IMG/VR virus record: IMGVR_UViG_2690316278_000015 | Direction: 5' to 3' (one strand) | Length of the DNA stretch: 21,808 nucleotides | DNA from: a virus | Lineage: Duplodnaviria; Heunggongvirae; Uroviricota; Caudoviricetes | Part shown: positions 6,272-20,542 of the stretch, piece by piece | Layout of the letters: each line of letters opens with the position of its first letter | Position numbering within the stretch: the stretch's first letter is position 1 | Notes under the pieces: model-generated | Seen by the model: the letters and a program-made list of their open reading frames with translations, nothing else | What the model was told of the DNA's origin: nothing | The model's database searches: none | Made by a program: the position numbers and the translations under genes

Positions 6272-6329
6272 TTCAGAAGCAAATAATTTTGAAACGTATG
6301 ATAGTGATTACAGGACAGTACTACTATCT

Positions 6330-6849
6330 NNNNNNNNNNNNNNNNNNNNNNNNNNNNNNNNNNNNNNNNNNNNNNNNNNNNNNNNNNNNNNNNNNNNNNN
6401 NNNNNNNNNNNNNNNNNNNNNNNNNNNNNNNNNNNNNNNNNNNNNNNNNNNNNNNNNNNNNNNNNNNNNNNNNNNNNNNNNNNNNNNNNNNNNNNNNNNN
6501 NNNNNNNNNNNNNNNNNNNNNNNNNNNNNNNNNNNNNNNNNNNNNNNNNNNNNNNNNNNNNNNNNNNNNNNNNNNNNNNNNNNNNNNNNNNNNNNNNNNN
6601 NNNTCNNNNNNNNNNNNNNNNNNNNNNNNNNNNNNNNNNNNNNNNNNNNNNNNNNNNNNNNNNNNNNNNNNNNNNNNNNNNNNNNNNNNNNNNNNNNNNN
6701 NNNNNNNNNNNNNNNNNNNNNNNNNNNNNNNNNNNNNNNNNNNNNNNNNNNNNNNNNNNNNNNNNNNNNNNNNNNNNNNNNNNNNNNNNNNNNNNNNNNN
6801 NNNNNNNNNNNNNNNNNNNNNNNNNNNNNNNNNNNNNNNNNNNNNNNNN
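6330..6849. other. Masked/unknown sequence (N run, 520 nt, with two called bases 'tc' at 6604-6605)
   Basis: Continuous n characters. The 58-nt unmasked island 6272-6329 is open in one + frame (SEANNFETYDSDYRTVLLS), so coding likely continues across it. Confidence 0.99.
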
Positions 6850-8859
6850 ATGACAAAGACGGGTACTCTAAGTATCTATGCAAAGAACGCTACAACCGCC
6901 TGGACACGCATATATACCGCTACACAGATGGACGGGCGATACGTACCCCTTACACGTACCATCAACGGCCATGCACTCACGGCCAATTTAGTACTGAACA
7001 GTGAAGATACAGGTTCAGTACCTGATACACGTACTGTGAATGGTAAGCCTCTAAGTGAGGATGTAGTACTTACCAGTACTGATACCGGCTCTGTACCAGA
7101 TACACGGACAGTTAATGGTCATGTACTCAGTGAAGATATAGTACTGAGTAGTGAAGATACAGGTTCAGTACCTGACACGCGTACAGTGAACGGTCATGTA
7201 CTTAGTGAAAATGTAGTACTGAGTAGTGAAGATACAGGTTCAGTACCTGATACACGTATGGTCAACGGTCATGTACTCAGTGAGGATGTAGTACTTACCA
7301 GTACTGATGTTGGCTTAGGGAAGGTTACAGATGATGCCCAGCTTACGATAGCAGGTAATCTAAGTGATCTGGGGGACGTGGAAGAAGCACGTATTAACCT
7401 TGCTGTTTACTCAATGGATGAAGTAGATGCAGAGGTAACGGCTTTAGCTGACAGTATTACTTCCCTTGATTCCGCTTCCATGAAGAAAGCGAGTAACCTT
7501 TCTGATCTATCCAGTCTCTCTACAGCACGTACTAACCTACAGGTGAACCGTTTGACTCAGGGTGCTACGTACACCGATCTGATGAGTAATGACCTGACTA
7601 ACCGTATCCGAATTCAGGATAACGGGGCATGGGGTGCAAGTACTGGTACTGGATGGATTGCTTTAGGTATAGGTCAGGGGGGGACAGGGGCTACAGATGC
7701 TTTGAGTGCTCGCCTAAACTTTCAGGTGGATCGCTTTAATCAAGGTAGTAATTTAACAACTATTAAATCCGCTGATTCTTCCGCTGCATTAGTGGTTTAT
7801 GATGGAGGGCAATGGGGTTCAGCTACATATATTGCGGGTGCTTTCACTGGCTGGAAAGCATTAGCAATTCCGCAGGGCGGTACTGGTGTTAAGACTCAGG
7901 CTGAGTTATGGCCTGCGATTCGTCCTACGGGTGCAACTTCTTTAGCAGGAGATCCTGTCTCTGATTCTGACGCGACTACCAAACGCTGGGTTGAAAACTT
8001 GCTGAGTAGTCGTACTTCAGTTAGTCCTCAATGGGATGTTATTGCTTCTTCCCCTTCCTCTACGGCAATTGGTAGTTATGTAACTGGAGGGCGTATTCGT
8101 TCGATATGCAACATTGGTACATCAACTGAAATATCTGGTGGTTTTCGGGTTGGTAAAACGATGGGACAGACTGGACAGGCTGATCTCACCCTTTTTATTT
8201 CTGAAAATGGTGCAGAGGATAAACTATGGGGGCTAAAAGGGCCGACTGGAACGATCCTAACTGATGTTCAATCAGGATGGATGACTAATACCGCTGTTTC
8301 GGGACCGACAGATGCCAATACCATCACCTTTAACGGTATGTATGCAGGGCCAGGTGACTCAGGTATTAACTATAGTGAAAAATATTCCCCTTTATTGCAC
8401 ATGCAAAGATACCCAGGGGCAAATCGCTCTCAGCTTCAGATAGACGGTGGTGGTACTTTAAGAGTACGAGGCGGGAACGGTACAACATGGTTTGGATGGT
8501 TAGTAATGCAAGCTCAAGGTACATCAGGTCGTGAGTTTAAAAGAGACATAACTCCAGCAAATCCAGTTGAAGCATTAGATCGGATAATGTCACAAGATTT
8601 AGTAACGTTTATCTACAAGGATGATGAACAAGAAAGGGTTAGGTTTGGTGTTATCGCCGAAGATGCTGAGTTGACTGCTCCGCAGTACATTAAGCATGAT
8701 GAAGAAACAGTTGAAATAGAAGGGGAGATTGTCACTCGTGATCATCCACGTGTTGATTTAAATCCAATAGTGATGGACTTGATGGGAGCTATTCAAGCCC
8801 AACAAGAAGAAATTAATCAGCTAAAAGATTTAGTACAACAGCTATTAAATAATAAATAA
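6850..8859 (+). CDS. Tail-fibre-like protein with Stf-type repeats and C-terminal intramolecular chaperone (peptidase S74-like); candidate neck/collar whisker
   Basis: First ATG after the N run is 6850, but the frame is open back into the gap, so the true start may be upstream. Five tandem 25-aa repeats (TRTVNGHVLSEDVVLSSEDTGSVPD). C-terminal ~110 aa matches the endosialidase/T5-pb1 chaperone pattern (S-G-R-E-F-K-R-D-I...ALDRI...RFGVIAED) with terminal coiled coil. Confidence 0.8.
   Translation: MTKTGTLSIYAKNATTAWTRIYTATQMDGRYVPLTRTINGHALTANLVLNSEDTGSVPDTRTVNGKPLSEDVVLTSTDTGSVPDTRTVNGHVLSEDIVLSSEDTGSVPDTRTVNGHVLSENVVLSSEDTGSVPDTRMVNGHVLSEDVVLTSTDVGLGKVTDDAQLTIAGNLSDLGDVEEARINLAVYSMDEVDAEVTALADSITSLDSASMKKASNLSDLSSLSTARTNLQVNRLTQGATYTDLMSNDLTNRIRIQDNGAWGASTGTGWIALGIGQGGTGATDALSARLNFQVDRFNQGSNLTTIKSADSSAALVVYDGGQWGSATYIAGAFTGWKALAIPQGGTGVKTQAELWPAIRPTGATSLAGDPVSDSDATTKRWVENLLSSRTSVSPQWDVIASSPSSTAIGSYVTGGRIRSICNIGTSTEISGGFRVGKTMGQTGQADLTLFISENGAEDKLWGLKGPTGTILTDVQSGWMTNTAVSGPTDANTITFNGMYAGPGDSGINYSEKYSPLLHMQRYPGANRSQLQIDGGGTLRVRGGNGTTWFGWLVMQAQGTSGREFKRDITPANPVEALDRIMSQDLVTFIYKDDEQERVRFGVIAEDAELTAPQYIKHDEETVEIEGEIVTRDHPRVDLNPIVMDLMGAIQAQQEEINQLKDLVQQLLNNK
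6952..7326 (+). repeat. Five tandem in-frame 75-nt coding repeats (phage tail fibre repeat)
   Basis: Units at 6952, 7027, 7102, 7177, 7252; near-identical at nucleotide level, each encoding TRT[VI]NG[HK]xLS[EA][DN]xVL[TS]S[TE]DTGSVPD. Confidence 0.9.
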
Positions 8860-8917: not shown

Positions 8918-9391
8918 ATGGCTATGGATATTTTTTCCGGTGCTAACCTTACTGTAGAAGTAGGTTCAAGTGCTGGTAAAACAGTTGCTACTGACTTTGT
9001 AGAAGTACCAGAGGTAAACACCTTCAGTACTTCAGGCTTTGAAAGTACTGTAATTAGCGTAAAAACATTCAATAATGCTTATGATCGTAAGCTATTGGGT
9101 ACTAAGTCAATCCCGGACATTTCTCTTGCAGTTAACTACTTACCAGATAATGCAGTACATCAGAATTTAGAACAACTTGCAGACGATCAGAAACGTTGTC
9201 AGGTAAAACTAAGCTATTTTACCGATGCAACTAAAAAAGAAGGTTTCTTTGTAATTTATACCTGCTTTGTTTCAAGTACCACTATCGGTGGTGATAAAGA
9301 TGAAGTAGTAACTAAGACTTTCACCCTTGCAGTTGATGGTGAAGCAATTGATTCAGGTCTGATTACTCCAAAACCAGAATCGGGCGAATAA
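8918..9391 (+). CDS. Major tail (tube) protein
   Basis: 157-aa ORF with AAGGA SD; lies immediately upstream of the chaperone pair and tape measure gene, the canonical position; followed by three tandem stop codons and a strong hairpin. Size similar to small siphovirus tube proteins. Positional assignment. Confidence 0.6.
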   Translation: MAMDIFSGANLTVEVGSSAGKTVATDFVEVPEVNTFSTSGFESTVISVKTFNNAYDRKLLGTKSIPDISLAVNYLPDNAVHQNLEQLADDQKRCQVKLSYFTDATKKEGFFVIYTCFVSSTTIGGDKDEVVTKTFTLAVDGEAIDSGLITPKPESGE

Positions 9392-9430: not shown

Positions 9431-9742
9431 TTGGAGATGAAAATGAATTTAAACGAATTGAAGAAAAAACTACAACCAGAATTAAAACCACATGAAGTAA
9501 TGGGTGAAATCATCTTTATTCATCGTCCAAATGGTCAGGATTTCCAGAAATGCACTGATGTGGCTAAAACTCTAATCCTATGTGTAAAAGATGAAAATGG
9601 TGATCCTATCTTCGCAGAAGAAGATATTGATGGACGAATTAATGTTAACTCTATTGATTTTGTAATCCAGAATGAAATTTACTCAGCAATTATTGCTTTA
9701 ATCAATACTGCGAAACCTGTAGATGAAGTAGAAAAAAAGTAA
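9431..9742 (+). CDS. Tail assembly chaperone (lambda gpG analogue)
   Basis: 103-aa ORF between tail tube gene and tape measure gene; ends ...GAA AAA AAG TAA with a canonical slippery heptamer just before the stop. Confidence 0.65.
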   Translation: MEMKMNLNELKKKLQPELKPHEVMGEIIFIHRPNGQDFQKCTDVAKTLILCVKDENGDPIFAEEDIDGRINVNSIDFVIQNEIYSAIIALINTAKPVDEVEKK

Positions 9743-10137
9743 GAGGTGATATCGAATTAAAGTACTTTTGTAAGATGGTTAACAAAAGAGGCTTATCACC
9801 TGAAGAATACTTTAGTTTAGATCCTGATGTACTCAATATGCTTATGATCTACGATACTTTTATAGAACCATCCGGTACGCAGATTGAAATGATGAAACAT
9901 GCGTACCAGTGTTACTACACCACTATCAGTAATGGCAACCTAACACCAGAAGCAAGGAAAAGTATCAAGGTACAGGATTTTGATTTTCTTGATGTGCTTA
10001 GTGATAGTACTAAGAGTACTTCAGAGAAAGCTGAAGAAAGAAAATTAAAAACTAAAGAGGCTCAATCCAATGATATTAAATCTATAGGGGAGTTAATTAA
10101 ATCTCAGGTATTAGGAAAGAAAAAGAATGGCAAATAA
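9431..10137 (+). CDS. Tail assembly chaperone frameshift product (gpGT analogue), via -1 shift at 9733-9739
   Basis: -1 frame ORF (9727-10137; ORF track shows it from ATG 9775) overlaps the 3' end of the G-like ORF and ends 11 nt into the tape measure gene, matching the conserved G/GT arrangement of long-tailed phages. Confidence 0.55.
9733..9739 (+). promoter_or_regulatory. Programmed -1 ribosomal frameshift slippery site A_AAA_AAG (G to GT-like fusion)
   Basis: Heptamer A AAA AAG in the zero frame of ORF 9431-9742, 1 nt before its stop. The -1 frame is open from 9727 to 10137, so slippage would yield ...EVEKK-VRGDIELKYFCKMVNKRG... Same heptamer as the E. coli dnaX site. Confidence 0.65.
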
Positions 10138-12478
10138 TAATAGAATACGTGTAGATATTACGGGTGATTCTTCCGGTTTACAGCGTGCTTTAAGGTCTGG
10201 TACTGAATCATTAGAGGAATTTGGTAGTACTGCTGGTGGCATTGTTGAAGAGTTCACAGGCCGANNNNNNNNNNNNNNNNNNNNNNNNNNNNNNNNNNNN
10301 NNNNNNNNNNNNNNNNNNNNNNNNNNNNNNNNNNNNNNNNNNNAATCATTAGAGGAATTTGGTAGTACTGCTGGTGGCATTGTTGAAGAGTTCACAGGCC
10401 GAATAACTGGTATGGCTGGCGGGTTCGGTACTGCTATGACCGGGATCGCGGGTGCTGCGGCTATTGGTATTGGTGGCCTGGCAGCATTAGTAGAATCATC
10501 ACGTGAATATGTGCGTGAAATGAACCAGATCAGTAAGAGTACCGGATTGTCCGTGGTTCAGTTACAACAGCTATCAGCGGCGTTTAGTGGCCTCGGTCTT
10601 GAGATTGATAAGTTTGGTGATTTCAACAAGGATACCTTGGATAAGCTCGGTGATGCTTTTCGTGCTGGCGGTGGTGTATCCGATGATCTTAAAGAATATG
10701 GACTCAACCTACAGGACTATAACAAGTACTTAAAACAGGCTGATGGTGGTATGCAGGCTGTGATCCACACCTTTTACGCCATGCGTGATGCAGGTAAATC
10801 ACAGAGTGAAATAGTTAACGTAATGGAAACGTTAGCCAGTGACTCAAGCCACATGATTAGTACTCTTCAGCAGTTCAATAATGAGGCTCAAGCTACAGCC
10901 TATATCCAGTCACAAAATGCTGAAGTAACTAATGATGCTGCTGAAAAATATGCTGAATTCGATAAAAACCTTGGGAAACTTACTACCAGCATTAAAGGTA
11001 CTATTGCTGATGGCCTATCACCTTTAGTTAATGCCATGAACAGTGTCTATGATGCTGCAAATCAAAAACCTCACGAGGCAGGTTTGTTTGAAGATCTGAA
11101 TGAACGTATTAAAACTTCCAAGGGTTCTCTACAGGATATGTTGGATATCTGGGAAAAATTACGTACAGCAGGGGCATTAAACTACCAGGGTGCAGCACTC
11201 AATACTGGCATCATGGATGATAAGGGCAACAAGGGTAATGAGTTCGCTCAGGCTAAGGCACGTTTAGAAGAACTGGCAAACAACCTAAAGTCCGATGTTG
11301 CGGTTGCTACCGCTCCTACTGGCGGATGGGTTGATCAGGCAAAAGAAGCTGAAGATGCAGCGAAGAAGTTAGAACAACAACGTAAACAGGCAGAAGCGGC
11401 ACAAAAGGCGGCAGATGCAAAACGCCTACAGGCTCAACGTAATCTGGAAGCTGCTCTTGCTCAAGTTGGGGAAGATGGTTTTCAGGTACGTCTACAGCAG
11501 TTCGACAGACAACAAAAGGCACTTCTTAAAACCATCACCGATAGTGCTCAAGTACTCGGTATCAATCCTGATGAAATGCTAAAGAACGCTACTGCATATG
11601 GTGCTAAACAACGTACTGATTTACTGAATTCAATGGTTGGTTATCAAGATCCTAATCAGGGTCTGAAAGATACCAATGCTCTTATTGGTTCCGGTCTACT
11701 CAATGACAATCAGAAGGGGTATCTGGCACAGCAACAGAATCAGCGTATCAATGGTGGTAATCCATTAGCCTATAACGATACCGATCAGAAGTTGAAAGAT
11801 AACGCTGATGCTATGAATGCTGAACTTCAGCAGAATGAGTTGTTGCTGAAAGGCCATGAGGACTATGAGAAACGTAAAGCTGAGATCACGGCAAAGTACA
11901 ATGCACAGGCCATCCAAATCAGTAACCAGAATGCACAGGATCAGTTAAGTATCTTCTCAAGTACTGCACAGTCACTATCACAGGGCATGGTTGATGCGTT
12001 TGGGGAAAGTAGTGGGGCTGCACAAGCTGCATTTACCCTAAGTAAGAGCATAAGCATTGCACAGACAGTACTTTCAATTCAGTCAGCATTGGCCCAAGCA
12101 CTCGCTACCCCTTGGCCAGCTTCATTGGCAAACTATGCACAAGTACTTTCACTTGGTATGTCGATTATTAGTACTGCAAAGGGTGCTGCTGCTGGTCAGT
12201 TCCATGGCGGGGTAGATGAACTACCAGCAAGTTATGACAACAAATCATTTGTACTTAAGCAGGGCGAGAGAGTGGTGCAGCCTGAAGCGAATAAGAAATT
12301 AACAGCATTCTTGGATAAACAAGAAGGTGGAAGTACTTCAGGTGATATTACCGTTAACGCACCATTGATCATCCAGGGTGATGTAGCTGATGATGACAAG
12401 AAATTTAATGAGATGCTTAAGAAACACGCCAATAGTGTTTCTCAAGCTGTGAGAAGTAGTCAAAAACGTAATACATAA
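10127..12478 (+). CDS. Tail tape measure protein
   Basis: 783-aa ORF (as assembled) following the chaperone pair; Gly/Ala-rich hydrophobic segment (ITGMAGGFGTAMTGIAGAAAIGIGGLAAL), extended Gln/Ala/Lys-rich helical regions, hydrophobic C-terminal segment. Contains N run 10265-10343 flanked by identical 59-nt copies, so true length may be about 46 aa shorter. Confidence 0.9.
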   Translation: MANNNRIRVDITGDSSGLQRALRSGTESLEEFGSTAGGIVEEFTGRXXXXXXXXXXXXXXXXXXXXXXXXXXXSLEEFGSTAGGIVEEFTGRITGMAGGFGTAMTGIAGAAAIGIGGLAALVESSREYVREMNQISKSTGLSVVQLQQLSAAFSGLGLEIDKFGDFNKDTLDKLGDAFRAGGGVSDDLKEYGLNLQDYNKYLKQADGGMQAVIHTFYAMRDAGKSQSEIVNVMETLASDSSHMISTLQQFNNEAQATAYIQSQNAEVTNDAAEKYAEFDKNLGKLTTSIKGTIADGLSPLVNAMNSVYDAANQKPHEAGLFEDLNERIKTSKGSLQDMLDIWEKLRTAGALNYQGAALNTGIMDDKGNKGNEFAQAKARLEELANNLKSDVAVATAPTGGWVDQAKEAEDAAKKLEQQRKQAEAAQKAADAKRLQAQRNLEAALAQVGEDGFQVRLQQFDRQQKALLKTITDSAQVLGINPDEMLKNATAYGAKQRTDLLNSMVGYQDPNQGLKDTNALIGSGLLNDNQKGYLAQQQNQRINGGNPLAYNDTDQKLKDNADAMNAELQQNELLLKGHEDYEKRKAEITAKYNAQAIQISNQNAQDQLSIFSSTAQSLSQGMVDAFGESSGAAQAAFTLSKSISIAQTVLSIQSALAQALATPWPASLANYAQVLSLGMSIISTAKGAAAGQFHGGVDELPASYDNKSFVLKQGERVVQPEANKKLTAFLDKQEGGSTSGDITVNAPLIIQGDVADDDKKFNEMLKKHANSVSQAVRSSQKRNT
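10265..10343. other. N run (79 nt) inside the tape measure gene, flanked by identical 59-nt direct copies (10206-10264 and 10344-10402)
   Basis: Sequence AATCATTAGAGGAATTTGGTAGTACTGCTGGTGGCATTGTTGAAGAGTTCACAGGCCGA occurs on both sides; copy spacing 138 nt (in frame). Confidence 0.95.
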
Positions 12479-12488
12479 GAAAGCCCAG

Positions 12489-13061
12489 TTAGGGATTTTC
12501 CGTGTGATAAGACAAATATTGTGAAAGAGAAGATGAAAGGGTATAGAGATTGTAATACTCTTCCCGCAATAATTTAACTTTAGGTGGTGAGTATTTAATA
12601 TTGTATGCAAGCTGTGTTGAAAGAGTACGTAATCTCGATAATGAATAATAACTCTTTACGATGGCATCTACTTCTTTTTTTGGGAGTGATGCTAATTTTT
12701 CTAATTGGGAATAATATACATCATCATGCAAATAAGAAACGGCAGTTGCTACTCTTTTAATAGCTTCTGTATCTTCAGTTGGAAGAGGAATACATATTTC
12801 ATATGTGCCTAACACCTGAGACTCATCGCCACCAGTAGCAAGAGCTAAAAGGTTATTGTTGATTTCGCTCAATAAGATTACACGCATCTTAAAAACATCA
12901 TCTGAACTTTCTTTCCATTTATCATATGCGTTATAGCCTATTTGGCCTGCAAATAACAACATAGCAACGATGACGGATGCAGCCTGCCAATCAAGCCTGT
13001 TAAAAAAAATACGAATCGAGGTTTTTAAATAAATAAAGAAAGAAGATATTCGAGGTAACAA
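12489..13061 (-). CDS. Opposite-strand moron: membrane-anchored protein of unknown function (candidate superinfection-exclusion / injection-blocking protein)
   Basis: 190-aa minus-strand ORF filling the whole 584-nt space between the tape measure stop (12478) and the gpM-like start (13063). Start is TTG at 13059-13061 with AAGGA 7 nt upstream; alternative ATG starts would truncate the predicted N-terminal TM helix (WQAASVIVAMLLFAGQIGY). About 33% GC in two 100-nt samples, lower than flanking tail genes. No plus-strand ORF covers the interval. Confidence 0.55.
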   Translation of the reverse strand: MLPRISSFFIYLKTSIRIFFNRLDWQAASVIVAMLLFAGQIGYNAYDKWKESSDDVFKMRVILLSEINNNLLALATGGDESQVLGTYEICIPLPTEDTEAIKRVATAVSYLHDDVYYSQLEKLASLPKKEVDAIVKSYYSLSRLRTLSTQLAYNIKYSPPKVKLLREEYYNLYTLSSSLSQYLSYHTENP

Positions 13062-13062
13062 A

Positions 13063-13620
13063 ATGGCATCCTTTTCAAATCAAATAAAAGTAACGAACTT
13101 TCAAATTAAAAGTACTGAACCGATCTATTCTAATCAAACATGGACAGGTCAACGTATCATGAGAAGTACTGGAATTCAATACTATCAAATTCAGTTCACC
13201 CTTAATTTTAATCCTGCATCACTAAATGAAGTGAATAGCTTTTTAGCTCAATATGCACAGGGCAAACCTTTCACTATGTCATTGGGGCTTGCAGGTACAT
13301 ATTACGGTAAACAGACTGGTGCAGTAACCGCTACTGCTCTCACTAAACCGGGTAATATGGTTGTACCTATCAGTACTAACACATTAGCTGTGGGTGAGTG
13401 GGTACAGTTTTCCAATCACAATAAGCTATATCGAATCGTAGAACGTACCAGTACTTCAATTACTATTTTCCCTGCTCTACAAAATACAGTACAGGCAAGT
13501 GAAGCACTCAAATATAACAATCTCATGATCGAGGCTGTATTAGATCCAGACAATGATTATTCATTGCCTATTGGGAACATCATGAATATTACATTGAAAG
13601 CAACGGAGAATATCATCTAA
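13063..13620 (+). CDS. Minor tail protein, lambda gpM-like (distal tail)
   Basis: 185-aa ORF first after the tape measure gene on +. Segment YQIQFTLNFNPASLNEVNSFLAQYAQGKPFTMSL resembles the gpM core (Y.V.L.....E.....FL.....G...F.W). Stop overlaps next start (TAATG at 13618-13622). Confidence 0.5.
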   Translation: MASFSNQIKVTNFQIKSTEPIYSNQTWTGQRIMRSTGIQYYQIQFTLNFNPASLNEVNSFLAQYAQGKPFTMSLGLAGTYYGKQTGAVTATALTKPGNMVVPISTNTLAVGEWVQFSNHNKLYRIVERTSTSITIFPALQNTVQASEALKYNNLMIEAVLDPDNDYSLPIGNIMNITLKATENII

Positions 13621-14243
13621 TGGACTCAGGTATATATACTAATGCTAATCTTCTTAAGTACTGGAAGTTAGTCAGAGGTACAACCAAGACAAGATTAACA
13701 CTAATGGAAATTATGAGCTTAGGCGTTAATGTTACTTGTTTTGATGTACTACCAAAAGGTACTAATGGTTTTCACTGGACGGATTCACTAATTGATATAG
13801 ATCTGGATGGTTATAAGTACATAAGTTTCCCCGACATTATCAGTGGTTCATTACCTTCATATTCTGAACAAAAGGGCATGTCTAATGATGCTATCAATTT
13901 TAAAATTAGCAATGTAAACGCCTCGGTTCGTGCTCTTGCCCTTGGTGGTTTCTTGAAAGATGCACAGATGAATATCAAGTTAGTAATTCTCAATCCATAT
14001 GATAGTACTGTAATTGATTCAATGCTCATGTTTACGGGGTTTATTGACTATGTACAGGCAGTAACTGATCCAAATCAGAAGCAAAACGAAATGACTATAT
14101 ATGTGAATTCTGTCTATAAGAAATTAGACAGACAACCTGCATTAATTGCCGCCAACTCAGTATATCAATCTTACTATAGAAATGATGAGTACTTTAGTCT
14201 GTTAGGTCAAGTTAATCAAAATCAGAACTGGAAATACAAGTAA
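13620..14243 (+). CDS. Minor tail protein (gpL-position; no Cys cluster seen)
   Basis: 207-aa ORF, translationally coupled on both sides (ATG overlaps upstream stop; its stop overlaps next ATG at 14243). Assignment by gene order only. Confidence 0.4.
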   Translation: MDSGIYTNANLLKYWKLVRGTTKTRLTLMEIMSLGVNVTCFDVLPKGTNGFHWTDSLIDIDLDGYKYISFPDIISGSLPSYSEQKGMSNDAINFKISNVNASVRALALGGFLKDAQMNIKLVILNPYDSTVIDSMLMFTGFIDYVQAVTDPNQKQNEMTIYVNSVYKKLDRQPALIAANSVYQSYYRNDEYFSLLGQVNQNQNWKYK

Positions 14244-14676
14244 TGAAAAATCTACATAATGAAGTAATGAGTATTATTCAGTACTCAATTGATAACCCAT
14301 ATAAGTATGGTGATAACGATTGCAACATTATAGTACTACGCCTTATTGATTTAATTAATGGTACTACACAGTTAACTAATCGCCAGTATTCGAGCATTAA
14401 AGAAGGTATAGCAGGTTTAAACAAGGAAGGATGGAACCATACAGGGGAAATTGTTGAAGCGTACTGTAAGCCAGTACAAGCCACTATAGACGGTGATATC
14501 TGGTTAGATCCTGACAACCCATTAATTATGGCAGTAGTGGCATCTGGTCGGGTACTTGGAGTAAATGCTGNNNNNNNNNNNNNNNNNNNNNNNNNNNNNN
14601 NNNNNNNNNNATGATGGTTTCGAACTTCAACCAAAACCAACAGAGGGAACATATTACAGAGTAAGGAAACAGAGAG

Positions 14677-14684
<8 letters not shown>
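14243..14684 (+). CDS. Tail assembly protein with NlpC/P60-like motif (lambda gpK C-terminal-domain analogue), interrupted by N run
   Basis: N-terminal GDNDCNIIVLRL resembles the NlpC/P60 catalytic-Cys motif of gpK (G.TDC..LFRDA). ORF runs into N run 14571-14610; an open frame resumes (DGFELQPKPTEGTYYRVRKQRDG*) ending at 14684 and overlapping the J-like ATG. No JAB/MPN (H-x-H) motif seen. Frame continuity across the gap cannot be checked. Confidence 0.45.
14571..14610. other. N run (40 nt)
   Basis: Continuous n characters. Confidence 0.99.
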
Positions 14685-18142
<3,458 letters not shown>

Positions 18143-19583: not shown

Positions 19584-19633
19584 AAAAAGGCATAGTATGT
19601 CATTCGTACTATGCCTTTTCTTTATTTGTTTTT
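19582..19633. terminator. Bidirectional rho-independent terminator between convergent genes
   Basis: A7 tract (19582-19588), stem GGCATAGTA (19589-19597) / TACTATGCC (19607-19615) with 9-nt loop, then T-rich tract TTTTCTTTATTTGTTTTT. Reads as hairpin plus U-tract on either strand. Confidence 0.7.
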
Positions 19634-20071
19634 AAGTACTGCAATCATGGAATTCACACGGTTTGGTGTCTGCCTGTACCATAGAGAACACTTAGCCTGT
19701 TTAATTGCTTCAAGGTAATCATGTGCTTTCAGGGCTGCTAACATCTTACGGAATTTCTTCACCCCGCCAATACCTAACTGGAAGGTCATGATAATAATAA
19801 AATCATTCCAGTCATCGGGAAGATTTAACCCTAATGTCTGTACCTGCATAATTGTTTTGGCTAAATCGCGAGATAGTAACTTGTCTGCTTCGCTTTCAGT
19901 AATGCCAGTACTAAAATCTTCTCCCGCCTGAATTAAGTGACCATATCCAATAGTACTACATCCTAAACTATCAGCATATGGATAGAATTTCCCATTTCTG
20001 AAGTACTTCAAATTTGCCTGATACTCTTTAGTACCTTCATATTCTTTTAATCGTGTTTTTAAATCGCTCAT
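19622..20071 (-). CDS. Endolysin, T4-lysozyme-like (glycoside hydrolase family 24), no signal/SAR segment
   Basis: 149-aa minus-strand ORF. Motifs align with T4 lysozyme: catalytic Glu in LKEYEG, Asp in YADSLG, STIGYGH (T4: YTIGIGH), C-terminal SLWYRQTPNRV (T4: SRWYNQTPNRA). N-terminus is hydrophilic. Confidence 0.9.
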   Translation of the reverse strand: MSDLKTRLKEYEGTKEYQANLKYFRNGKFYPYADSLGCSTIGYGHLIQAGEDFSTGITESEADKLLSRDLAKTIMQVQTLGLNLPDDWNDFIIIMTFQLGIGGVKKFRKMLAALKAHDYLEAIKQAKCSLWYRQTPNRVNSMIAVLKNK

Positions 20072-20100: not shown

Positions 20101-20107
20101 AATATTT

Positions 20108-20542
20108 ATGATGAGTGAATGGAAATACTCGGATGATTGGAGCGAGGAGGAAATGTTATCCGGTGAATATGCTGGTTTCGTTTATATCTTTCAGTTTGAG
20201 GATGGTTCTAATTATGTCGGTGCTAAGCAAATCTATCAGCGGGTTAAGGATGCGAGAAAGCTAAAGCCCACTTCAAAGGAAAATGGCTGGCGTGAGTACC
20301 TCAGTAGTTCCAATGTCGTTAAAAACAAAATTGAAAATGGTGAACAGTACTCAAAAACGATTCTATGGTGCTTCGCAACTATGCGAGAGGTAATGATTGT
20401 AGAGGCAATACTGATCCTTCATCAGATGCTTAAACCGGAATGTTTGAATCTGGCAATGATGAGTAAGATTAGATCACCAAATGCAAAGGATAAAAAAAGA
20501 CTACTCGGAATAGTACAGGAACTATTGGAGTACTTGAATTGA
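20108..20542 (+). CDS. Small GIY-YIG-like nuclease domain protein (putative; possible homing-endonuclease relative lacking a DNA-binding extension)
   Basis: 144-aa ORF. GFVYIFQFEDGSNYVGAK fits G-I-Y-x(9-11)-Y-I-G spacing (cf. I-TevI GIYQIKNTLNNKVYVGSAK); Arg 7 residues after YVG; later Glu (MREVMIVEAIL) and Asn (ECLNLA) in positions expected for the catalytic Glu/Asn. The usual His after the Arg is not evident. Confidence 0.45.
   Translation: MMSEWKYSDDWSEEEMLSGEYAGFVYIFQFEDGSNYVGAKQIYQRVKDARKLKPTSKENGWREYLSSSNVVKNKIENGEQYSKTILWCFATMREVMIVEAILILHQMLKPECLNLAMMSKIRSPNAKDKKRLLGIVQELLEYLN

Follow-up and report, generated by a model that had tools for sequence, protein, structure and literature searches.

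An interchangeable minus-strand gene in the tail module of an enterobacterial prophage lineage encodes a predicted inner-membrane protein that may protect the lysogen

Introduction

HK97 gp15 is a small inner-membrane protein encoded by a moron in a siphovirus tail operon, next to the gene for the tape measure protein (TMP); it is expressed from the prophage and blocks genome entry in a manner that depends on the tail region of the incoming phage (PMC3594210). For P22 SieA, several sequence types with less than 30% identity occur at one locus (PMC10883804). P2 Fun(Z), Old and Tin, as well as the hotspots of P2 and P4, represent nonessential conversion cargo that is swapped rapidly between near-identical elements and stays intact in defective ones (PMC13586616). 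Here we analyse a gene that can be compared with these systems, the open reading frame (ORF) at 12489-13061 on the minus strand, with the working name X190, in a 21,808-nt stretch of DNA (IMG/VR record IMGVR_UViG_2690316278_000015) that we call, at its full length, the window. The window corresponds to the structural half of the genome of a tailed phage, and every large gene in it lies on the plus strand. A preliminary description had proposed that X190 is an A+T-rich, independently transcribed moron for a membrane protein that excludes superinfecting phages. We find that X190 is exchangeable cargo at the junction between the genes for TMP and the distal tail protein (DTP), a newly defined variable slot with three kinds of cargo in a poorly sampled enterobacterial prophage lineage of the temperate siphovirus type.

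A variable cargo slot between the TMP and DTP genes

X190 fills the interval between its neighbours just as the preliminary description had stated. The stop codons of X190 and TMP are convergent and separated by 10 nt (12479-12488), a single base (13062) lies between the TTG start of X190 and the ATG of DTP, which starts at 13063, and X190 overlaps no other gene. It is also, as claimed there, the only substantial minus-strand gene inside the plus-strand tail operon and the sole non-overlapping minus-strand ORF within the tail module, the next one being the lysozyme gene at 19622-20071.

Homologues of X190 occupy the same TMP-DTP junction in the same reverse orientation in prophages of Dryocola, Klebsiella, a metagenome-assembled genome of Buttiauxella and others, and in seven IMG/VR contigs. 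Because this list is biased by the use of X190 as the query, we re-sampled the lineage through the neighbouring tail gene at 13620-14243, which gave a census of 20 related IMG/VR loci that is independent of X190. In six of these (L037, L038, L043, L044, L050 and L051) the interval measures 62-132 nt and holds no ORF. Eight loci have an interval of about 587-590 nt with a member of the X190 family, three (L036, L041 and L045) have about 670 nt with a gene for a DUF6216 protein of about 205 residues and three transmembrane (TM) segments, and three more (L042, L046 and L052) have about 890 nt with a gene for a DUF726 alpha/beta-hydrolase of about 260 residues that carries a GHSLG motif and belongs to phrog_35015 (function unknown). 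The cargo is always on the minus strand in the census loci. No PADLOC match was obtained for the DUF6216 and DUF726 cargo.

Three elements make up the empty junction: a strong GC hairpin (-24.8 kcal/mol and z -5.25 in L038), a conserved TATAAATAC about 30 nt ahead of the DTP start, and the ribosome-binding site of DTP. These elements suggest that the cargo goes in at an apparent boundary between transcription units.

A related Dryocola prophage also carries, near its end (L006:868-1665), an AbiGi-family gene together with another unknown gene, and this position is likely to be a further site for defence cargo in the lineage.

Exchange of X190 as a cassette

X190 swaps as a discrete cassette, independently of its flanks. 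Between the window and L012 the flanks are 91-99% identical in nucleotide sequence and the gene is 60-65% identical, with the drop located exactly at the ends of the ORF. Between L006 and L010 the flanks show 92-100% identity; the gene shows 79% over its first 100 nt, up to the TM helix, and 47-55% beyond them, which places a recombination breakpoint about 100 nt into the gene. The reverse pattern is seen between the window and L008, where the flanks are 57-84% and the gene 75-91% identical, with values of 91% and 83% for the 100 nt adjoining the two gene ends. In total, at least four sequence types of the X190 family, which are 44-61% identical, are found in the slot.

A second sign comes from the tetranucleotide GTAC, of which the window contains 237 sites, compared to 74.5 +/- 8.5 in dinucleotide-preserving shuffles (3.2-fold enrichment); they originate mostly from Ser-Thr, Gly-Thr and Val-Leu codon pairs. 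X190 had been noted to be poor in this site, and indeed it has one in 573 nt (1.75 per kb), compared to about 11 per kb in the window and 8-18 per kb in most neighbouring genes. The same holds for the slot cargo of all three families (1.5-6.7 per kb, compared to 10-13.6 per kb in the remainder of each locus), and this indicates that the cargo has a history different from that of the backbone. CTAG and GCGC are totally absent from the window, where Markov models predict about 47 and 20 sites. These tetranucleotide biases suggest strong selection on palindromic sites, by restriction avoidance or a modification system.

Coding capacity and selection

Could X190 be a chance ORF, or a decaying pseudogene, in an A+T-rich spacer? 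The TTG start and a database annotation that offers nothing beyond "hypothetical protein" would fit such a case, but it has to be considered refuted and its probability is negligible. The pairwise ratio of nonsynonymous to synonymous substitution rates (dN/dS) among eight alleles is 0.09-0.31, i.e. about 0.1-0.3, neither indels nor internal stops are present in any of the more than 10 alleles examined, and structure prediction gives a confident fold once 18 homologues are supplied. X190 is a real gene under purifying selection. Its homologues in Shigella, Citrobacter, Enterobacter and Buttiauxella are 84-100% identical.

The position of the start is conserved as well, with TTG in the window, L001, L005, L006 and L008, and ATG in L010, L011 and L012. 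The block AAAGGA(T/A)GCCAT ahead of it is near-invariant in eight loci, with one A-for-T substitution in L011. A downstream start at Met33, the one given in the annotation of the Dryocola homologue P0005, was considered and rejected; this codon falls within the TM helix, and all alleles keep both the upstream codons and the start position.

Retention in decayed prophages

The two closest full-length homologues, from Citrobacter cronae (87% identity) and Enterobacter sp. (84%), are not located within a tail operon. They reside in prophage remnants of 1.8 kb and 1.2 kb, respectively, which differ in chromosomal site and deletion endpoints. Both remnants keep the full 190-codon ORF with zero indels, while only the last 76-120 codons of TMP are left, DTP is split into two or three reading frames, and the following tail gene is truncated or absent. 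In the comparison of L008 with L005 the gene has 23 mismatches in 573 nt and no indels, compared to 58 mismatches in 664 nt and four indel events in the flanks; for the window and L001 the corresponding values are 87 in 573 nt without indels and 285 in 1195 nt with four indel events. The mismatch density of the remnant flanks is thus about twice that of the gene. The Enterobacter remnant lies beside prkA, near recombinase fragments, at the same site as the allele-carrying prophage L011, which has a serine recombinase. L011 itself is a third defective prophage, with a TMP gene disrupted by an insertion sequence and a split tip gene, and it still keeps its allele.

Intact cargo in defective elements has been reported for the defence cargo of P2 and P4 (PMC13586616). 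The retention of X190 in remnants argues for a benefit to the host rather than to the virion, and it is at most an indirect hint of expression from the repressed prophage. According to the definition of Juhala and Hendrix, a moron is extra DNA that some genomes carry and that close relatives lack at the corresponding site, and this is the situation at the TMP-DTP junction. The proposal that X190 is a moron therefore receives strong support: homologues recur as opposite-strand inserts in one orientation (eight of the 20 bait-sampled loci), the slot is empty in some relatives and filled by unrelated cargo in others, and the gene moves as a discrete cassette, lacks the GTAC signature of the phage and remains intact in decayed prophages.

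Predicted architecture and topology

X190 contains 26 Leu, 21 Ser and 16 Tyr among its 190 residues and has one hydrophobic segment at about residues 24-44, in agreement with the earlier prediction of a single N-terminal TM helix followed by a Tyr/Leu-rich domain. By these predictions it is an integral membrane protein. With moderate confidence we assign to X190 itself an N-in/C-out topology, as expected for a signal-anchored inner-membrane protein. In full-length family members, the net charge of the segment before the helix is +2 to +7, and that of the 15 residues after it -3 to +2.

An initial AlphaFold2 (AF2) run with five close homologues gave a predicted local distance difference test (pLDDT) score of 50 and was unusable. 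With 18 diverse homologues the score rose to 85 for an all-helical model, in which an amphipathic helix (residues 5-21) precedes a long helix (residues 24-74) that starts as the hydrophobic segment, followed by the CIPLP loop and four more helices in a bundle. Fold searches with this model returned generic helical bundles only, including periplasmic sensor domains of chemoreceptors, none of them significant by Foldseek.

Sequence conservation is highest in the TM helix, with 80% identity among the tail-slot alleles and 44% family-wide, compared to 39-59% and 17-32% elsewhere. This helix carries a small-xxx-small packing motif (S29...A33). Such conservation is unusual for a mere anchor and suggests a specific helix-helix contact. 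On the other hand, residues 45-190 form the rapidly diverging part of X190 that is exchanged between alleles. Several distant members have Cys pairs in the C-terminal part.

Relatives of X190

X190 has no match in Pfam (E <= 0.1), NCBIfam or PADLOC, and its profile found nothing significant among PDB sequences. A Pfam scan of 17 family members at E <= 1 gave scattered weak matches to 12 unrelated families (best E 0.0024), with no exclusion-protein model among them, and no enzymatic domain was found in the family by Pfam scans. With PADLOC v2, neither X190 at E <= 1 nor seven of eight other members had a match; those of P0008 are weak (PDLC00806, E 0.0044; PDLC00323, E 0.0056). Searches with the DNA and protein of X190 in 50,697 GenBank phages, and with its DNA in complete Escherichia coli genomes, found nothing. 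There are nearly no isolated relatives of the phage lineage, the one match (25%) being found via the neighbouring tail protein. An exhaustive profile search of 1.8 billion representatives retrieved only 11 proteins, which indicates that the family is small.

The preliminary description took the family to be undescribed. This is correct for Pfam, NCBIfam and PADLOC, which hold no model of it, but by sequence comparison X190 is a distant member of phrog_3829 (function unknown), which matches it over residues 21-143 at E 1e-5, and E. coli members are sometimes labelled "lysogenic conversion protein". The matches of phrog_3829 to other members are stronger (allele P0016, 3.9e-10; P0012, 2.8e-23; P2-like slot protein, 9e-134). 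The sole member in an isolated phage, and the archetype of phrog_3829, is gp21 of Escherichia phage P2_AC1, which matches the X190-family profile at E 2e-30 with a hhalign probability of 98.5%. Its gene is located between the tail fibre assembly and sheath genes, the position of the Z/fun locus of P2. The P2 record notes for fun(Z) at this locus "blocks growth of T5; nonessential; lysogenic conversion", and Z/fun is listed among the P2 defence loci (PMC13586616). The P2-type gene occurs in P2-like prophages in 203 of 5426 complete E. coli genomes (about 4%), and NCBI labels it (e.g. WP_264115996) "lysogenic conversion protein" or "hypothetical protein", which is annotation and not a result.

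Other members reside elsewhere. P0012 of E. coli is encoded in an element with an integrase and is preceded, at a distance of 39 nt, by a TIR gene (L014:7090-7962; 290 residues, ThsB-like, PADLOC PDC-S66 at E 2e-112) that is adjacent only in L014-L016, and P0018 takes the same place in the same element type without a TIR gene (L019-L021). In the literature on PDC-S66 and DUF6216 we found no functional information. In C. freundii, P0020 is encoded after a DUF4238-Pers gene, and the island that contains them also has two methyl-directed restriction enzymes; P0013 of Kluyvera is a stand-alone islet. The possibility that X190 is the obligate membrane effector of a TIR system, as in a Thoeris-like pair, was rejected, as L019-L021, which are of the same element type, lack the TIR gene, and so does the window. 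The protection conferred by a P2_AC1 lysogen has been reproduced by a TIR+TM locus near cos (PMC9122126); the proteins of this locus are unrelated to the X190 family, and the locus is a different one from gp21.

Genome context and sequence signals

The features of X190 and of the surrounding tail module are given in Table 1. Further distal tail genes and the gene for a tip protein of 1139 residues lie downstream of DTP, which also matches the Pfam family DTP-pb9_B-dom weakly (E 0.0025; 18.3 bits, under the curated cut-off of 27 bits).

Table 1. Features of X190 and neighbouring genes in the window
Feature	Position	Strand	Remarks
Tail tube gene	8918-9391	+	
Two chaperone ORFs	9431-10137	+	
TMP gene	10127..12478	+	left border of the slot; phrog_13674, E 5.5e-83
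Weak hairpin and 10-nt spacer	12479..12498		AAAGCCC-AGTTA-GGGATTT; right arm encodes the last X190 codons
X190 cargo gene	12489..13061	-	190 aa, TTG start, TAA stop; from ORF list and translation
X190 residues 45-190	12492..12929	-	helical bundle, predicted periplasmic; invariant E65, N69, L125, Y137; CIPLP loop
X190 residues 24-44	12930..12992	-	single predicted TM helix WQAASVIVAMLLFAGQIGY; from hydropathy
X190 residues 2-23	12993..13058	-	basic amphipathic segment, net charge +3 to +4, predicted cytoplasmic; AF2 helix 5-21
X190 start codon TTG	13059..13061	-	ATG at the equivalent position in alleles L010, L011, L012
DTP gene, pb9-like	13063..13620	+	right border of the slot; phrog_1302, E 7.9e-17
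Shine-Dalgarno sequence AAGGA	13069..13073 (complement)	-	7 nt upstream of TTG; antisense to DTP codons 3-4
Tail gene next after DTP	13620-14243	+	bait for re-sampling of the slot

The Shine-Dalgarno sequence had been described as overlapping the start of the neighbouring gene. It is present, but lies inside the coding sequence of DTP, beside the ATG and not overlapping it. The DTP ribosome-binding site (GAGG, 13052-13055) and an ATAAATA sequence (13029-13035) lie antisense to about the first 12 codons of X190. As a consequence, each allele supplies its own translation-initiation region for the essential neighbour, GAGG here and GGAG in L012. The proposed A+T-richness of X190 (34.4% GC) is seen relative to TMP (43.9%) only, as the downstream tail genes have 36.9% (DTP), 34.6% and 37.0%, and the upstream chaperone genes 31.7% and 34.2%.

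The hairpin between the convergent genes has folding energies of -10.4 and -13.3 kcal/mol with z values of -1.1 and -1.6, which are not significant. It is a degenerate version of a perfect hairpin, resembling a bidirectional terminator, in other alleles (comparison with L036 and L039). ATAAATA is found at several gene boundaries of the window (8852/8856, 9394, 13029 and 18142, plus a minus-strand copy at 20103 ahead of the lysozyme gene) and may be a phage-specific promoter or processing signal; window-wide it is not enriched (9 matches, compared to 8.3 expected).

Several observations concern other genes of the window. It contains 1738 masked bases (runs of N) within the fibre (6289-8859), TMP (10127-12478), DUF6950 (14243-14846) and tip (14723-18142) genes, and a masked run in the TMP gene, as in the tip gene, has copies of one peptide on either side (e.g. 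SLEEFGSTAGGIVEEFTGR). The fibre-like ORF at 6289-8859 has tandem repeats of about 75 nt (25 residues) at about 6930-7310, ...TGSVPDTRTVNGHVLSEDVVL..., with GTAC sites spaced 75 nt apart, and the C-terminus of its product resembles gp37_trimer/Peptidase_S74 fibres in relatives. The phage lysozyme gene (19622-20071, minus strand) adjoins a 144-codon gene (20108-20542, plus strand), the product of which is 97% identical to a SegE-type GIY-YIG protein in L011 and looks like a homing endonuclease of the lysis region.

Possible function

We hypothesize that X190 is a prophage-expressed inner-membrane protein that guards the lysogen against other phages, most likely by blocking DNA entry, and we put the probability of this reading at roughly 45%. 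The lysogen would make a small type-II inner-membrane protein with its basic N-terminus in the cytoplasm. The conserved TM helix would pack against itself or against a conserved membrane partner, and the variable bundle of four to five helices would face the periplasm. There, X190 would obstruct the step at which the incoming tail, with its TMP and tip complex, forms a channel for DNA across the inner membrane, a kind of superinfection exclusion for which HK97 gp15 and P22 SieA are the precedents (PMC3594210, PMC10883804). Obstruction of entry is favoured by the lack of an enzymatic domain, the lack of a partner gene and the exposed variable domain; the exclusion proteins known from the inner membrane are small, too, and are not enzymes (PMC3594210, PMC10883804). 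For the role in exclusion or defence that the preliminary description had proposed, the evidence is circumstantial and consists of relatives in the Z/fun slot of P2 and in defence islands.

A number of points weigh against this hypothesis. X190 has no homology to characterised exclusion proteins (hhalign probability of 0.3% each for SieA and SieB) and no Pfam match to the YebO/gp15, SieB or Imm models. The neighbourhood in defence islands is guilt by association from five examined contexts. X190 has three to four Lys and Arg residues on either side of the helix, and its topology is called from net charge and distant homologues. The GC content is not distinctive (34.4%, compared to 34.6-36.9% downstream). 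Consensus scans gave neither a minus-strand sigma-70 promoter upstream of X190 nor an intrinsic terminator, so that the independent transcription proposed earlier is not established. Any promoter would have to be antisense within the 5' part of DTP, where the best candidate by eye is a weak TTGATT-17-TACTTT; the conservation of the block upstream of the start is confounded by the DTP coding sequence. Finally, the alleles change without co-varying with the TMP or tip genes of their own phage, and TMP stays 93% identical. Self-exclusion through the cognate TMP is therefore not indicated, and the earlier suggestion that X190 acts on cognate TMP-mediated entry is weakened.

The main rival explanation, which we regard as rather unlikely, is a single-gene abortive-infection or defence effector: the bundle would sense a phage component and the TM helix would oligomerise and depolarise or permeabilise the inner membrane, so that the infected cell is killed or arrested instead of entry being blocked. 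The TM helix as the most conserved region with its small-xxx-small motif would suit such an effector, as would the distant relatives beside a TIR protein and in restriction/DUF4238 islands, and TM proteins of known defence systems are usually viewed as suicide effectors (PMC9122126). However, the missing TIR neighbour in L019-L021 shows that a partner is not obligate, X190 is the only cargo gene in its tail slot, and the protein has one TM helix and no recognisable sensor or enzymatic module, with no PADLOC match for X190 and, among eight other members, weak ones for P0008 only (E about 0.005). Moreover, a pore-former that is made constitutively would have to be tightly controlled, and we see no regulator. 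Somewhat less probable is an envelope protein of lysogenic conversion unrelated to phages, which would improve host fitness, for example through stress tolerance, colicin or toxin resistance, or host interaction, and would account for the retention in decayed prophages without an anti-phage role. Retention in remnants shows a benefit to the host (or neutrality) but not its kind, the roles of morons are diverse (PMC3594210), and the sole name found in any source, "lysogenic conversion protein", is a generic one. On the other hand, fast allele replacement with divergence focused in the exposed domain is typical of an arms-race gene, and the family turns up repeatedly at sites, both slots and islands, that are known to hold anti-phage genes.

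A role in the lytic cycle of the phage itself, for example in lysis timing, tail assembly at the membrane or its own DNA entry, is very improbable. It would agree with the location inside the tail module, the membrane location and the overlap of the first codons with the DTP translation-initiation region. However, X190 runs against the direction of late transcription, remnants that have lost all lytic functions still retain it, and the slot is empty in six of 20 close relatives and holds unrelated genes in six more, which shows that X190 is dispensable for the virion and the cycle.

Taking exclusion by an entry block as the preferred reading, a wider and somewhat doubtful proposal would be that X190 and phrog_3829 represent a widespread, uncharacterised class of modular entry-gate immunity proteins, and the TMP-DTP junction a new defence hotspot. 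In such a class the TM helix would either assemble with itself or bind a conserved partner in the inner membrane, and the exchangeable periplasmic bundle would set which tail proteins are recognised. Alleles would be shuffled among unrelated mobile elements (siphovirus tail slot, P2 Z/fun slot, cargo sites of integrative and conjugative elements), and the DUF6216 membrane protein and the DUF726 hydrolase would be anti-phage genes too.

If X190 does exclude phages, the short list of known inner-membrane proteins for exclusion or defence would gain a new sequence family, and the natural allele series of X190, with identical flanks and 45-60% identical ectodomains, would be a ready-made means to map the specificity of DNA entry. 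Should the prediction fail, X190 would be a clear case of a prophage gene that has been domesticated for some other, unknown benefit. The variable slot itself adds two further cargo families, DUF6216 and DUF726, in a poorly sampled prophage lineage.

Comparison with known systems

Cor (phi80/N15/T1) and Llp (T5) resemble X190 as envelope proteins that are encoded near tail genes and protect against superinfection. Both are outer-membrane lipoproteins that inactivate FhuA. Their description as lipoproteins is also drawn from the literature on morons (PMC3594210). X190, on the other hand, has no lipobox; it contains a single Cys, at position 89, and there is no L-x-x-C after the hydrophobic segment.

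The gene for P22 SieA is, like X190, an opposite-strand gene that abuts the end of an operon for virion or ejection proteins, and SieA has its own promoter (P22 record). The series of SieA types at one locus parallels the allele series of X190. However, the two proteins are not homologous (hhalign 0.3%), SieA has three predicted TM helices compared to one in X190, and it targets the ejection proteins of podoviruses.

The working model for X190 is HK97 gp15, also the product of a small inner-membrane moron near the TMP gene, and the likeness is one of kind and not of family. There is no sequence relationship and no Pfam YebO match. The gp15 gene is located between the chaperone and TMP genes, whereas X190 follows the TMP gene on the opposite strand, and X190 has a structured domain of about 145 residues, unlike gp15.

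Homology, in contrast, links X190 to the P2-like slot gene of phrog_3829. The two share the basic N-terminus, the conserved W-x-A-x-S-V-I-x-A-M-x-L-F helix and the helical domain, and both are stand-alone cargo within the tail-gene region of a temperate phage. They differ in that the identity is about 20-25%, the phage is a myovirus and the gene is co-oriented with the tail fibre assembly and sheath genes. The P2 hotspots belong to another phage lineage and another slot, and the P2 record says only that cloned fun(Z) blocks the growth of T5. Nevertheless, X190 shares all three behaviours of the P2 and P4 hotspots, namely cargo at a fixed slot, rapid swapping and intactness in defective elements.

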